Source: a virus. Taken from it: 64,000 bases of DNA. The notes under the pieces are model-generated. The model did no database searches and was not told where the DNA came from. It saw only the letters and a list, made by a program, of their open reading frames with translations. The first letter of the stretch is position 1. Each line of letters begins with the position of its first letter. Both the position numbers and the translations under genes were made by a program. Where the stretch lies: the IMG/VR virus record IMGVR_UViG_3300029267_004179, positions 32,001 to 96,000 of that record; one strand, 5' to 3'. This document shows positions 44,374 to 49,520 of the stretch, in pieces.

Positions 44374-45405
44374 ATGGATGATAAATATAGCATGAAGAAA
44401 ATAATTATACTTGGAGCAGGACTTGCAGGATCAGTTGCATATAATGCTTTGTCTTCGATGGCTCCTGTTGTTTACGAAGCAAAGTCAGAGGATAGGTCTG
44501 GGCTAAATGAACATCATGCTGTGATGAGGTTCAGGAACACAGATATTGGGAAGTATCTTGGGTGTGAGATGGTCCCGGTTTGTGCTACTAAGTCTGTGTT
44601 CAGGGATGGACAGCTATTTGATGTGGCAACTATAGCTGATAACAATGAGTATTCCCTGAAATGTTATGGGTCTTTAGCAGACAGGAGTTTGCATTCGCTT
44701 GGAAGGGTTGAAAGGTATATAGCTTGTGTAAGGCCTATGTCTGGGCAAATTGTTGTATATGATGCAAAAGTTGAAGAGGTTTTTAAAATAGAAGGAGTGT
44801 GCGGCATGATGTTTAGTAGCCAAGGAGATGTCAACTTGGCAGCATCAGAGAATAGGCTGAGGTATGACATTTGCATTAGCACTTTGCCTTTGCCTGTTAT
44901 TCTTAGGATATGCGGCATAAATCATCACATGAAGTTTAAATCGAAACCTATCACTGTCAGAACTTGTTACTTGGATTTTGAATCTTCAGTCCATCAAACT
45001 GTATACTTTCCATCTCATGAATTTCATGCGTATCGTGCTACACTTCAAAACAGCAGATTAATTGTAGAATTTGATGGCAAGCTTGATTCTCCGATAGATT
45101 CTTGTGTTGTGGATAAAGAAACATTGGAGGTAATGAAGATATTTGGCCTTGGTAGTATACAGAGTTGGGGATCAGATACAAAAGTACAGCCGATGGGCAA
45201 AATTGTTCCTGTTGATGATGATTCCAGAAGGGCAGCAATAATGGAGTTAACAGATATGTACAATATTTATTCTCTTGGTAGGTATGCCACATGGCGTCCA
45301 TTGAGGGCAGATCACCTTGTTAATGATATTGCAAAAATCCAAAGGATGATAAATGTATCTGAGAAGAAAAAGAAGTATTATGAAAAGTTATCCGGTAGTC
45401 TATAA
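44374..45405 (+). CDS. FAD/NAD(P)-binding oxidoreductase
   Basis: IILGAGLAG Rossmann motif, V.EA, ISTLPL, SLGRYATWR. Confidence 0.85.
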   Translation: MDDKYSMKKIIILGAGLAGSVAYNALSSMAPVVYEAKSEDRSGLNEHHAVMRFRNTDIGKYLGCEMVPVCATKSVFRDGQLFDVATIADNNEYSLKCYGSLADRSLHSLGRVERYIACVRPMSGQIVVYDAKVEEVFKIEGVCGMMFSSQGDVNLAASENRLRYDICISTLPLPVILRICGINHHMKFKSKPITVRTCYLDFESSVHQTVYFPSHEFHAYRATLQNSRLIVEFDGKLDSPIDSCVVDKETLEVMKIFGLGSIQSWGSDTKVQPMGKIVPVDDDSRRAAIMELTDMYNIYSLGRYATWRPLRADHLVNDIAKIQRMINVSEKKKKYYEKLSGSL

Positions 45406-45440
45406 TTAATTAGACAGATTAAACTATTAGAGGAGGGAAG

Positions 45441-46217
45441 ATGAAGGTACATCTACTCAATTACACAAATGAGGCAAAGGACTTGCTTATTTTTAGCAAA
45501 CGCACAAGGCATATGGCAAATGCAGACGCACTTGAGAAAGTGAAGAGCATGACAGAAGCTGAGAAGGACAAAGAACTTGATTATGTTTTCAACACAATTG
45601 GCAGCAGTTGGGAATTTGTCTCCTATACTTTTTTGATTGAGGACGTCACCAGGGCGTTTACTCATCAGCTGGTAAGGCATAGGGTTGGGACGGCGTTTGC
45701 ACAACAGGCAATGAGGGTGGCAAGGATGGAAGACTTTGGCTATCTTGTGCCTCCTAAGTTTAGTTTAGCTGCTGTTGAGTCTTATTCTAACATTATGAGC
45801 AATATTCAGGAAGGATACGATGCCCTTCTTGTGGAGTTTGATGCTGATCAGCAAGATGCCAGAGGAGTACTCCCAACAAATATTCATACAAACATTTTGT
45901 TCAAGGTCAATTTAAGAGCTATTGCTGATATTTCTCATATTCGGCTTTGTATTAGAGCACAAGGGGAGTTTCAGAATGTCGCTTTTAGGATGAAAAAGTT
46001 GATTGAATCAGTTCATCCTTGGGCAGGAAGAGTACTTGGCCCTGAGTGTATAGTGAATTGGAGATGTGCTTTCCCGAAGTATAAACAGTGTCCTATTAAG
46101 GAGATGCATCTGTGGCTGAATGGTCCTGCGGATGAAGAGATTGCTGAAATGAATTTTCAGTGGGAGTCAATTACAGGGTACGACCCTCAGCCAGATATAG
46201 TTAAATCATGGGAATAG
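45441..46217 (+). CDS. thyX: FAD-dependent thymidylate synthase
   Basis: VTRAFTHQLVRHR...FAQQAMR (ThyX motif with Ser replaced by Ala), ARGVLP.N..T, N.R, RLC.RAQ.E. Confidence 0.88.
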   Translation: MKVHLLNYTNEAKDLLIFSKRTRHMANADALEKVKSMTEAEKDKELDYVFNTIGSSWEFVSYTFLIEDVTRAFTHQLVRHRVGTAFAQQAMRVARMEDFGYLVPPKFSLAAVESYSNIMSNIQEGYDALLVEFDADQQDARGVLPTNIHTNILFKVNLRAIADISHIRLCIRAQGEFQNVAFRMKKLIESVHPWAGRVLGPECIVNWRCAFPKYKQCPIKEMHLWLNGPADEEIAEMNFQWESITGYDPQPDIVKSWE

Positions 46218-46227
46218 TAGGTATGAT

Positions 46228-47273: not shown

Positions 47274-47291
47274 TTTGAAGGAGTATTCAAT

Positions 47292-48344
47292 ATGGATGAC
47301 TATCGATCTTATAAAAATGACAAGGTTGTCAGGTTTGTTGATTCACTTAAACACAGCTGGAGGATATTTCCACCATCACTTCAGATAGGCATAACTGATT
47401 CCTGTTTTAATAAATGCCCTATGTGTGGGCATTGGAGGAGAAAGAAGAAATACAGCCTTAACACGGAGAGGCTTATTAGGTTTCTTGAAATGGGGAAGAA
47501 GTTGGGGCTTGAATCTGTGGGTTATAGTGGAGGTGATCCACTTGCATATGCCAAAATAAATGATGTTATGAAATGGCATATTGGCAACAATGTGTCTTTC
47601 GGCATAGTCACTGCAGGGTATGTACCTTACTGTGTTGAATATAGCCTTTTGAGGTGTGCAAGTTGGGTCAGAGTCAGCCTTGATGCTGTTGGTGAAGAAA
47701 GGTATAGGAAATTTAGAGGGTCTGTTGCATTTTCGGATGTTGACAGGTCTATTAATGACATGCTGGATGCCAGGGTAAGGCTTGGTGTTGGAATAACCTT
47801 GCATTCAGGCAACTCTGATTATGTTGGTGAAGTGCTTGACTATTGCAAATCAAAAGGGATAGAAGAAGTAAGAGTCTGGGTTGTAAGAAGGCATTCAAAG
47901 ATGGACATGTCTTTTAAACAGAGGATGAAGCTTGCTTCAACACTTGCTAAGTATTTGGAAGATGATTACTATTCAATCACAGACACCAACTTTTCTACTA
48001 CCATCGACACATTGACATCAGATAATATTGATGTGATAGGCTTTGACCGGTGCTATGCATGTTTGTATCAGCTGTTCATAGATTCTGATGGCAGTATCTA
48101 TGCTTGCTGTACTGCTGCAGGAGACACTGAATCTAAAAGCAGAATGGAGCCGTTTTCTAACATATATTTTGATATGCCGATTGTTAGTAGTCTTGGTTGG
48201 GAGAGGATTGCAAAGAAGGTCCGGGCATTTCACTCAAAGGAGTATAGTGATCTTCCTGATGTTTGCAAAGATGAATGTATAGTCAGACATCGCATAGCTA
48301 ATAACATAGCCATGAAGAGCTGGCACAGACAGGATTTTCAATAA
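47292..48344 (+). CDS. radical SAM enzyme with SPASM/twitch domain
   Basis: CFNKCPMC, SGGDP, WVRVSLDA, C......I.SDG.IY.CC, C..C. Confidence 0.92.
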   Translation: MDDYRSYKNDKVVRFVDSLKHSWRIFPPSLQIGITDSCFNKCPMCGHWRRKKKYSLNTERLIRFLEMGKKLGLESVGYSGGDPLAYAKINDVMKWHIGNNVSFGIVTAGYVPYCVEYSLLRCASWVRVSLDAVGEERYRKFRGSVAFSDVDRSINDMLDARVRLGVGITLHSGNSDYVGEVLDYCKSKGIEEVRVWVVRRHSKMDMSFKQRMKLASTLAKYLEDDYYSITDTNFSTTIDTLTSDNIDVIGFDRCYACLYQLFIDSDGSIYACCTAAGDTESKSRMEPFSNIYFDMPIVSSLGWERIAKKVRAFHSKEYSDLPDVCKDECIVRHRIANNIAMKSWHRQDFQ

Positions 48345-49141
48345 TGAATGAAATCTATGATAGCCCTGAAACAGGATTTGTGTCTGCTACAAGATCATTG
48401 CTATTATGCAGGAAACAATATGGCTCTATGTATCATTGTAGGCTGACTCCAAACCACAACTATGCGTTTGAAGATGAAATATTTGATAGGAGCTGGGGTG
48501 AATATAAGGAGAAGTATAAAGGTGGTAGGCTCATCAGTTGGGGTAGGTTTTTAATTGAAGCTGTTTTTCCTGATCATTTGTATATTGAAAATGGCAGGTC
48601 ATTGATCAACTTGATAAATGATAAGAGGTTCAATGATGAGCCATCAGCTACAAAGAAGGGTACATTTCATAGTCATATTGGCCGGATGTGCAGGCCAAGG
48701 GAAGTGTTTGATGACACTGAATATGTTGGGTATCTTGATTACACATTGGATAGATGGTCAAGAGGGAATCATAGATCATATCCTCACTTCTTCTTTGACT
48801 GTGAGTCGCCTGAATGGATGTTTAGGGAGCTTTTTGTGAATCCAAACCAAATAAGGTCTGGAAGAGTTGCAAATAGTTGTACTTCAAATATTGCTTTTAG
48901 ATGGGATAGTAAATCTGAGAAAGCATATATATATCAGATTTTGAAGCACACTCAATGGAGTCATCTGTATGGAGATTTTTGCGGAACTGCTTCATTTGCA
49001 AGAGCATTTTGTAGTGAGCTTTCTATACCTATGCCCAGCTGCAATATAGTTATATTTGCAGTGTCTGCAACTATGGACCGCCCAAAACAAGCCAAGATGA
49101 TTGTACATGATTTTGATGAAAGGTATTTACAAAATGACTAA
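48344..49141 (+). CDS. divergent thymidylate synthase/dCMP hydroxymethylase-fold protein
   Basis: Motif order H.GRM / LD....W / SC.SNIAFR / HLYGDF / A.SA aligns by eye with TS YG.R / QL / PC..QF / G..N(D) / S.H. Confidence 0.45.
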   Translation: MNEIYDSPETGFVSATRSLLLCRKQYGSMYHCRLTPNHNYAFEDEIFDRSWGEYKEKYKGGRLISWGRFLIEAVFPDHLYIENGRSLINLINDKRFNDEPSATKKGTFHSHIGRMCRPREVFDDTEYVGYLDYTLDRWSRGNHRSYPHFFFDCESPEWMFRELFVNPNQIRSGRVANSCTSNIAFRWDSKSEKAYIYQILKHTQWSHLYGDFCGTASFARAFCSELSIPMPSCNIVIFAVSATMDRPKQAKMIVHDFDERYLQND

Positions 49142-49520
49142 TAATCAGTTTACAGTAGCTGTAGATTTTGATGGCGTTATAAATAATTATAGCCGATATA
49201 AAGGCAAAGGTGTATTTGAAGAGCCTGTGCCTGGAGTTGTTGAAGCATTTAGAACTATGAAGGCTGCAGGTTGGACTATAATAATTAATACAACAAGGTC
49301 GGAAACCTGGCTTATTGAGGAATATTGCAAGAAACATGGAATTTTGTTTGACTACATAAACCATAACCCTGCTAACAATGTGCTACATTTGTCTCCTACA
49401 AAAGTCATAGCAGATGTGTATGTAGATGACAGGAATGTAAGGTTTGATGGCAATTGGTGTAAGGCTATAGATGAAATAAGGAATTTTAAGCCTTGGTATA
49501 GGAGGAAAGATGAGGAATAA
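49134..49520 (+). CDS. HAD-family phosphatase/nucleotidase
   Basis: VDFDGVI, T.R, K..ADVYVDDR. Confidence 0.88.
   Translation: MTNNQFTVAVDFDGVINNYSRYKGKGVFEEPVPGVVEAFRTMKAAGWTIIINTTRSETWLIEEYCKKHGILFDYINHNPANNVLHLSPTKVIADVYVDDRNVRFDGNWCKAIDEIRNFKPWYRRKDEE

Follow-up and report, generated by a model that had tools for sequence, protein, structure and literature searches.

A replication-linked ThyX–DnaE island in uncultured phages as a candidate source of C5-substituted pyrimidines

The gene cassette at 44362–53235 of the DNA analyzed here (the window; 64,000 nt, bases 32001–96000 of a 104,019-bp IMG/VR virus record rated complete) is built around an atypical thymidylate synthase ThyX and ends in a DnaE-type replicase gene. 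We read it as one copy of a widespread, replication-linked 'ThyX–DnaE island' that makes a non-canonical C5-substituted pyrimidine for phage DNA, a reading that we give about an even chance of being right. Hypermodification of phage DNA defeats restriction and matters for both phage therapy and sequencing, and most known pyrimidine pathways begin with a thymidylate synthase (TS) homolog and a 5-hydroxymethyluracil (5-hmU) kinase. Here, a different anchor, consisting of the atypical ThyX, a flavoprotein resembling UDP-galactopyranose mutase (UGM) and a radical S-adenosylmethionine (SAM) enzyme, recurs in dozens of uncultured phages with a varying mix of tailoring enzymes.

The cassette is a single string of overlapping plus-strand genes, and all long open reading frames (ORFs) across 44362–56120 lie on the same strand. 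Intergenic spacing from ThyX to the gp32-like gene beyond DnaE ranges from −43 to +35 nt. The radical SAM gene runs 1 nt into the TS-fold gene, which in turn shares 41 nt with the HAD phosphatase gene, and the HAD and DnaE genes share 11 nt, with a 214-nt gap upstream of the flavoprotein gene that opens the cassette. This layout of overlapping or near-abutting genes bears out the preliminary description of the region, which had proposed one operon coupled to dnaE, and every gene that it named was recovered on the plus strand where it had been placed. A scan of the region for promoter and terminator consensus sequences gave nothing above shuffled expectation, and no GenBank phage matched it by megablast.

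The distribution of the island was examined by searching IMG/VR with the radical SAM family alone, which gave 21 loci whose genes were counted by local hidden Markov models (HMMs); loci of the TS-fold relatives were sought with a nine-sequence alignment. Together with the window and two further loci (L003 and L019), this made 24 distinct loci, viral or metagenomic. Among the 21 loci found through the radical SAM family, the flavoprotein was present in 18, ThyX in 19 and DnaE, within a few kilobases, in 18. The order flavoprotein–ThyX–(variable slot)–radical SAM–DnaE held in nearly all of the 24. The gene set of the window is repeated in three loci (L002, L003 and L019), the last of which is collinear from the AAA ATPase gene to that of the 5′–3′ exonuclease. 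As an accessory that an island may or may not carry, the TS-fold gene is clear in 4/21 loci (L028–L030 and L040, the last being the L002 contig) with a weak match in L039, and clear in seven of the 24 overall, plus a weak eighth match.

Variation is concentrated between ThyX and DnaE. The slot holds SDRs, HAD/PNKP proteins, an aldo/keto reductase with a Fer4 domain, GT2 glycosyltransferases, class I and FkbM methyltransferases, a 3′–5′ exonuclease, the helical protein or the TS-fold protein, frequently joined by 4-nt overlaps; in the window, its occupants are the helical protein, the TS-fold enzyme and the small HAD protein. The island is a hotspot where tailoring enzymes are swapped. A core that stays fixed amid changing genes for sugar and nucleotide tailoring is what marks a biosynthetic island, as opposed to housekeeping nucleotide supply. 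The impression of a modification island given by the preliminary description is supported. The cassette is not one of a kind, since its core is found widely, Pbunavirus included. Individual examples of slot genes can be found at L027 2178–3026, L025 8951–9976, L032 3112–3879 and L041 6490–7527 (GT2, class I/FkbM methyltransferases and an aldo/keto reductase whose tail resembles ferredoxin).

The backbone of flavoprotein, ThyX, HAD-PNK and DnaE is common to the Pbunavirus phages DL68, F8 and 14-1 and to Kylevirus, with 30–40% identity to the window proteins. In these Pbunavirus phages and Pantoea phage Kyle, the flavoprotein gene lies upstream of the genes for ThyX, HAD-PNK, an exonuclease and DnaE, and Kyle adds an SDR and a small pyrophosphatase. 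The genes of F8 are gp065 (flavoprotein), gp059 (ThyX), gp057 (HAD/PNK), the exonuclease and gp055 (DnaE), in the same order as in the window phage. Pbunavirus differs in having neither the radical SAM/SPASM gene nor the TS-fold gene, and its DnaE (1035 aa) is without the uracil-DNA glycosylase (UDG) domain found here.

Pbunaviruses are leading therapeutic phages, and their DNA provides the chemical link to modification. A 2025 preprint reports modified thymidines with masses of 362 and 390 Da in virion DNA of F8 and 14-1, which make up about one quarter of T, occur in a TG context and were read by the authors as tetrose sugar-alcohol and cyclized aldopentose derivatives; no modification genes were recognizable in these phages, and none were assigned (bioRxiv 10.1101/2025.03.31.646159). 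The homologs of the island genes, F8 gp065, gp059 and gp057, provide three candidate genes for this modification in culturable phages. Since the TG motif implies a DNA-level step, the nucleotide-level modified pyrimidine of the preliminary description is not favored, and by analogy the modification is more likely to be of the sugar type and centered on thymidine than that description proposed. Among 20 proteins of the region compared between F8 and 14-1, most were 92–99% identical. The outliers were HAD-PNK gp057 and the small ThyX-flanking gp058, gp060 and gp061 (78–82%), together with gp070 (57%), and gp066 aligned over only about half of its length. Divergence of the ThyX-flanking genes in two phages whose thymidine modifications differ weakly backs a role for the island.

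The ThyX protein (45441–46217, plus strand; 258 aa) matched PF02511 strongly (120.2 bits, cutoff 24.8, E = 1e-34) and fell slightly under the cutoff of the NCBIfam equivalog TIGR02170 (86.4 versus 87.9 bits). It carries a Cys-bearing C-terminal extension. In the HMMER alignment to Thermotoga maritima ThyX, Ala occupies the position of Ser88 and Val that of Tyr91, so that RHR is kept while the remainder of the RHR(X)7S motif with Ser88 and Tyr91 is lost; the best PDB match was 3g4a, an S88A mutant. Strict conservation of Ser88 and Tyr91 has been described for ThyX, along with kinetic defects of the S88A and Y91A mutants (PMC8316439). T. maritima R90 and the uracil-activating R174 both have aligned counterparts, R92 and R168 in the window numbering, which do not vary within the clade. 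Because this uracil-activating Arg is retained together with RHR, which is RTR in some members of the clade, dUMP is likely still the substrate of the phage enzyme.

How unusual these substitutions are was assessed in the 120 nearest ThyX clusters, in 118 of which the motif was readable. Position 88 was Ala in 63 clusters, Ser in 49 and Thr in six, while position 91 was never Tyr and was Val in 93. The Ser-to-Ala change singled out by the preliminary description is therefore real but not special, and its interpretation as a functional switch was dropped because the position is Ser/Ala polymorphic across the subfamily. The ThyX proteins of Pbunavirus and Kylevirus likewise are without Tyr91, and that of Pbunavirus, with the motif RTR...QETSR, retains a hydroxyl residue at position 88. 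Four Cys residues (C170, C203, C209 and C217) are conserved throughout, Pbunavirus, Kylevirus and the loci L002, L003, L019, L004 and L005 included. They may form a metal or Fe–S site, and we know of no canonical ThyX with such a site. As judged from these alignments, the subfamily is atypical, the loss of Tyr91 and the invariant Cys residues being more telling than the change at Ser88.

The conserved partner upstream of ThyX is a flavoprotein of 347 aa (44362–45405, plus strand), a Rossmann protein with a GxGxxG motif that matched phrog_4828 at 6e-49. No Pfam family, including GLF and Amino_oxidase, matched it at E ≤ 0.01, and phmmer against the PDB gave nothing meaningful; the L002 ortholog gave only generic FAD_binding_3 and DAO matches at its N terminus. 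An AlphaFold2 (AF2) model was built from 18 orthologs with a predicted local distance difference test (pLDDT) score of 81.5. Its top VIA match was the UGM of Trypanosoma cruzi (4dsh; Z 23.5, root-mean-square deviation (r.m.s.d.) 3.5, 307 residues), and the Aspergillus fumigatus UGM 3ukh scored Z 22.5, the two UGMs aligning over 307–313 residues at 14–17% identity. Protoporphyrinogen oxidases (Z ~21) and amine oxidases (Z 18–19) followed, and the ESM Atlas neighbors agree with a UGM/amine oxidase class, of which the model indicates that this flavoprotein is a compact member. UGM provides the best fold match and shares the FAD Rossmann motif; the phage protein is ~120–160 residues shorter and matches neither of the Pfam families GLF and Amino_oxidase. 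Homologs occur in 362 records of GenBank phages, and Pseudomonas phages account for 292 of these. For Pootjesviridae, it has been proposed that phage NDP-sugar mutases supply DNA glycosylation (PMC13326640).

The radical SAM enzyme (47292–48344, plus strand; 350 aa) matched PF04055 with 48.5 bits (cutoff 29.5) and carries a CX3CX2C motif, with CFNKCPMC as its cluster motif. Its C-terminal Cys domain appears to be of the SPASM/twitch type; the score to SPASM PF13186 was 18.8 bits, below the cutoff of 21.5, and many homologs have a precomputed PF13186 match. Across 32 homologs, six Cys residues do not vary (C45, C254, C272, C273, C325 and C329), and at least 90% of the sequences also have C38 and C42. 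The best NCBIfam likeness was to MoaA at 52 bits, far below the cutoff, and a match to viperin was faint. All 45 homologs collected are metagenomic, and tblastn against GenBank phages returned only three remote matches at 22% identity. An assignment as an NrdG activase was rejected (27 bits against a cutoff of 131), and NrdD was not found.

The radical SAM gene overlaps that of a rare protein of 265 aa (48344–49141, plus strand), for which the TS α/β fold was confirmed at the level of an AF2 model (pLDDT 84.3). Foldseek of this model against the PDB returned TS-family chains only, at E = 1e-4 to 1e-3, with the CMP hydroxymethylase MilA at the top (1.4e-4). In VIA, the dCMP hydroxylase AfhB of phage HY126 scored Z 13.8, MilA 13.3 and ThyA 12.4, with an r.m.s.d. 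of 3.2–3.4 over 190–200 residues. ESM Atlas neighbors were TS-family clusters, and BFVD matches were TS/dCMP hydroxymethylase proteins. The folds obtained for this protein and for the flavoprotein confirm both of these calls of the preliminary description. The fold is the one shared by the TS/dCMP hydroxymethylase superfamily (ThyA, T4 gp42, MilA, SPO1 gp29, RB69 gp48 and AfhB; Z 12–14), yet HMMER and Pfam detect no similarity to it. PF00303 had no match in the protein, in distant family members or in a six-frame search of the genome at E ≤ 10, and neither phmmer nor profile searches of the PDB with the protein and its family gave anything meaningful. The family is tiny and discrete, comprising nine close homologs and 39 representatives among 1.84 billion proteins, with none in 185,579 species genomes and no tblastn match in GenBank phages. 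Its genes always lie inside a ThyX–DnaE island and often overlap that of the radical SAM enzyme. A very small new TS-fold family is thereby defined, with a conserved putative nucleophile and a dedicated radical SAM partner.

The candidate nucleophile is C179, the single residue that is invariant as such in a 40-sequence alignment (40/40), which sits two residues ahead of the model strand 181–188. K/R201 and D/E211 are also conserved in 40/40 sequences, R/K174 and H207 vary hardly at all and 36/40 sequences have R137. The family was compared by hhalign with a set of TS enzymes (Escherichia coli ThyA, RB69 Td, T4 gp42, RB69 5-hydroxy-dCMP synthase and SPO1 gp29). The alignments were weak, at E = 0.079 with nine sequences and E = 0.002 (probability 13.5%) with 40. 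Both runs paired C179 with C146, the catalytic Cys of E. coli ThyA, K201 with R166 and D211 with N177, and the second run only paired Q204 (Q/N) with the folate-binding D169. An acidic residue at 177, where Asn goes with dUMP, is a mark of dCMP-specific TS members, and D169N occurs in flavin-dependent 5-hydroxy-dCMP synthases (PMC13326640). The phage family would thus resemble the former in its acidic residue and, in one of the two runs, the latter in having an amide (Gln/Asn) in place of Asp. These correspondences suggest a Cys-dependent C5-activating enzyme, possibly acting on a cytosine nucleotide and possibly folate-free. Confidence in this chemistry, which was read from profile alignments, is low.

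Upstream of the radical SAM gene, where the preliminary description placed a single 'Nmad-like' gene, there are two ORFs, at 46228–46926 and 46884–47273. The second is conserved and encodes a small helical protein (plus strand; 129 aa) with the motif N-x2-R-G ... E ... R ... D-L; its gene is immediately upstream of that for the radical SAM enzyme in 4/5 loci where it is separate. The window protein had no Pfam match at E < 0.2, neither it nor four orthologs matched PF07659 at E ≤ 1, and a profile search of the PDB with the family gave nothing meaningful. In L002, HAD, helical and SDR domains form one polypeptide, and in L003 the helical domain is fused to an SDR. These fusions tie the slot genes together. 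The L002 fusion segment showed weak similarity to DUF6378 (E = 0.006) and DUF1599 (E = 0.014), with a range of E = 0.006–0.05; this faint link, obtained through the fusion, is what is left of the 'Nmad-like' label, as the window protein itself has no Pfam match.

The last slot gene (49101–49520, plus strand) encodes a small HAD-type phosphatase of at most 139 aa, whose true start may be an internal ATG. The N-terminal nucleophile motif VAVDFDG is present, PHROG 1238 matched at 2.4e-23, and NCBIfam matches to BT0820 (46 bits) and HAD-IIIA were each below their own cutoff. The gene overlaps that of the DnaE-type replicase (49510–53235, plus strand), which has PHP, DNA_pol3_alpha, finger and HHH_6 domains and a C-terminal family-4 UDG-like domain at residues 1085–1229 (PF03167, 1e-25). 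Orthologs of similar length are encoded in L002, L019 and L023. The DnaE proteins of L003 and L039 are 1500–1678 aa long, possibly through an intein, and that of L025 is split into two ORFs.

A working scheme for the island can be drawn from these assignments. The flavoprotein and ThyX would carry out the conserved entry steps, with ThyX acting on dUMP, and the radical SAM, TS-fold, helical and HAD proteins would form a lineage-specific branch. In this branch, Cys179 of the TS-fold protein would attack C6 of a pyrimidine mononucleotide whose phosphate is gripped by K/R201 and R137. D/E211 at the position of TS Asn177 would favor a cytosine nucleotide as the substrate, and Q204 at that of the folate-binding Asp169 would point to a co-substrate other than folate. 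The radical SAM enzyme, whose gene overlaps that of the TS-fold protein, may supply or remodel the C5 substituent, and the HAD phosphatase may strip a phosphate off an intermediate. The Pbunavirus case suggests, by analogy, that the flavoprotein and the reductase or phosphatase genes would produce a carbohydrate-like side chain on thymidine or 5-hydroxymethyldeoxyuridine (5-hmdU).

A more specific version of this scheme is a long shot. It proposes a new C5-pyrimidine route in which ThyX and the UGM-like flavoprotein put a sugar-derived carbon unit on dUMP, which would explain the Pbunavirus thymidines, while a folate-independent TS-fold protein and the radical SAM/SPASM enzyme add a substituent to a cytosine nucleotide. 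ThyX and UGM enzymes both work via reduced-flavin N5 iminium adducts.

Characterized pathways provide a partial precedent for such a cassette. The route in phages M6, ViI, PaMx11, SP10 and phiW-14 uses a dUMP hydroxymethylase, 5-HMUDK, aGPT-Pplase and tailoring enzymes that depend on pyridoxal phosphate, radical SAM and flavin (PMC8989533, PMC5889632). As in the window, a TS homolog, a radical SAM enzyme and a flavoenzyme occur in one cassette with variable tailoring genes (PMC8989533, PMC5889632). The conserved anchor here is ThyX, in contrast to the host or phage ThyA of those pathways, and the flavoprotein is UGM-like and probably distinct from the PaMx11 gp47-type oxidoreductase. The enzymes that define the characterized pathways, a 5-hmdU DNA kinase together with a pyrophosphorylase or an amino-acid transferase, were not detected in the window phage. 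A Pfam scan of nearly all ORFs of at least 70 aa in the 104-kb genome, singly or batched, found no dNMP kinase, 5-hmU DNA kinase, aGPT-Pplase, amino-acid transferase or glycosyltransferase, although very divergent versions are possible. This agrees with the preliminary description, which had recognized no 5-hmU kinase, amino-acid transferase or glycosyltransferase of the characterized pathways. Two other types of DNA modification were also considered for this genome. A 7-deazaguanine pathway was dropped as none of QueC, QueD and FolE was found. A Z-genome was likewise dropped, since PurZ was not seen even though a MazZ-type dATP/dGTP pyrophosphohydrolase (PF04447, 81 bits) is encoded at G000:97799–98074, just past the right end of the window.

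Several points weigh against a modification pathway. With the kinase and transferase families undetected in the genome, a full pathway cannot be drawn up for this phage. All relatives with the radical SAM or TS-fold gene are metagenomic and known from genes alone. We attribute the Pbunavirus modification to the genes that it shares with the island, those for the flavoprotein, ThyX and the HAD protein, by inference and not from a published result. The profile alignment behind the TS-fold residue mapping is weak (E = 0.002, probability 13.5%), HAD/PNKP phosphatases are frequent in replication modules, and a ThyX with RHR and the uracil-binding Arg may just supply dTMP to a genome of 39% GC.

The last of these points leads to the foremost alternative, namely that the cassette provides ordinary nucleotide supply and DNA-end processing, which we consider a serious rival, if a less likely one. 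ThyX would then make dTMP, the HAD protein would be a nucleotidase or 3′-phosphatase, the flavoprotein and radical SAM enzyme would serve redox or cofactor needs, the TS-fold protein would be a second, divergent dTMP/dUMP-handling enzyme and virion DNA would be canonical. The strong PF02511 match and the retention of RHR and the Arg174 equivalent are in keeping with a plain ThyX, as are the folding of the T. maritima S88A enzyme (3g4a) and the free alternation of Ser and Ala in the subfamily. The surroundings of replication genes (helicase, primase, DnaE, UvsY-like, gp32-like and RecA-like) and a genome in which no transferase or kinase was found fit equally. Ordinary supply, however, leaves unexplained why GT2, FkbM/class I methyltransferases, SDRs, aldo/keto reductase and the UGM-like flavoprotein recur in the island, and it gives no reason for a phage with ThyX to add a Cys-bearing TS-fold enzyme invisible to PF00303 or an activase-like radical SAM enzyme without NrdD. 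Nor does it account for the modified T of pbunaviruses that share the backbone.

A second alternative, which appears improbable, is that the product is a soluble modified nucleotide or nucleotide-sugar that does not enter DNA, with the radical SAM and TS-fold enzymes making, for instance, a cofactor, an anti-defense molecule or a nucleotide that serves as chain terminator or decoy. The best curated likeness of the radical SAM enzyme is to the nucleotide-acting MoaA (52 bits), followed faintly by viperin, but both are far below the family cutoffs. The Pfam scan found no dNMP kinase to bring a modified dNMP to the triphosphate, and the HAD phosphatase could free a nucleoside. Set against this are the translational coupling to the replicase, the position beside DnaE kept in more than 20 loci and the link of the Pbunavirus backbone to DNA modification. 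The remaining idea, that the sugar-type genes (UGM-like and HAD here; SDR and GT2 in relatives) are surface-polysaccharide morons unrelated to ThyX and DnaE, draws on the fact that UGM, SDR, GT2 and HAD are classical polysaccharide-pathway families but is scarcely credible for genes that lie within an early replication operon, overlap ThyX, rSAM and DnaE genes and come with no membrane or export components, and for a flavoprotein far shorter than true UGMs and without a GLF Pfam match. Fixed position and translational coupling to DnaE thus make both the soluble product and the morons less likely than synthesis of a modified pyrimidine for phage DNA.

The other genes of the region belong to replication or to single lineages. 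Between ThyX and the helical-protein gene, the first of the two ORFs noted above (46228–46926, plus strand; 232 aa, GTG start) encodes a K/R-rich protein with no Pfam, PHROG or NCBIfam match. It is lineage-specific, being missing from the closest relative, L019, and from all other related loci. Downstream of DnaE are a UvsY-like gene, a gene for a gp32-like zinc-finger single-stranded DNA-binding protein and a RecA/UvsX-like gene. The gp32-like protein (53827–54945, plus strand; 372 aa), which lies between the other two and is not recognized by Pfam, has invariant H72, C84 and C93, a CPIC motif and an acidic tail like that of T4 gp32. With this assignment, the possibility that it is a hidden transferase was rejected.

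Outside these genes, a NADAR-domain protein (E = 1e-45) is encoded within G000:1–20000, beyond the window. The structural region at 207–24705 of the window encodes two Laminin_G_3 lectin-like proteins and a PAS-domain protein (E = 3e-8), a domain that is, to our knowledge, unusual for a phage virion module.

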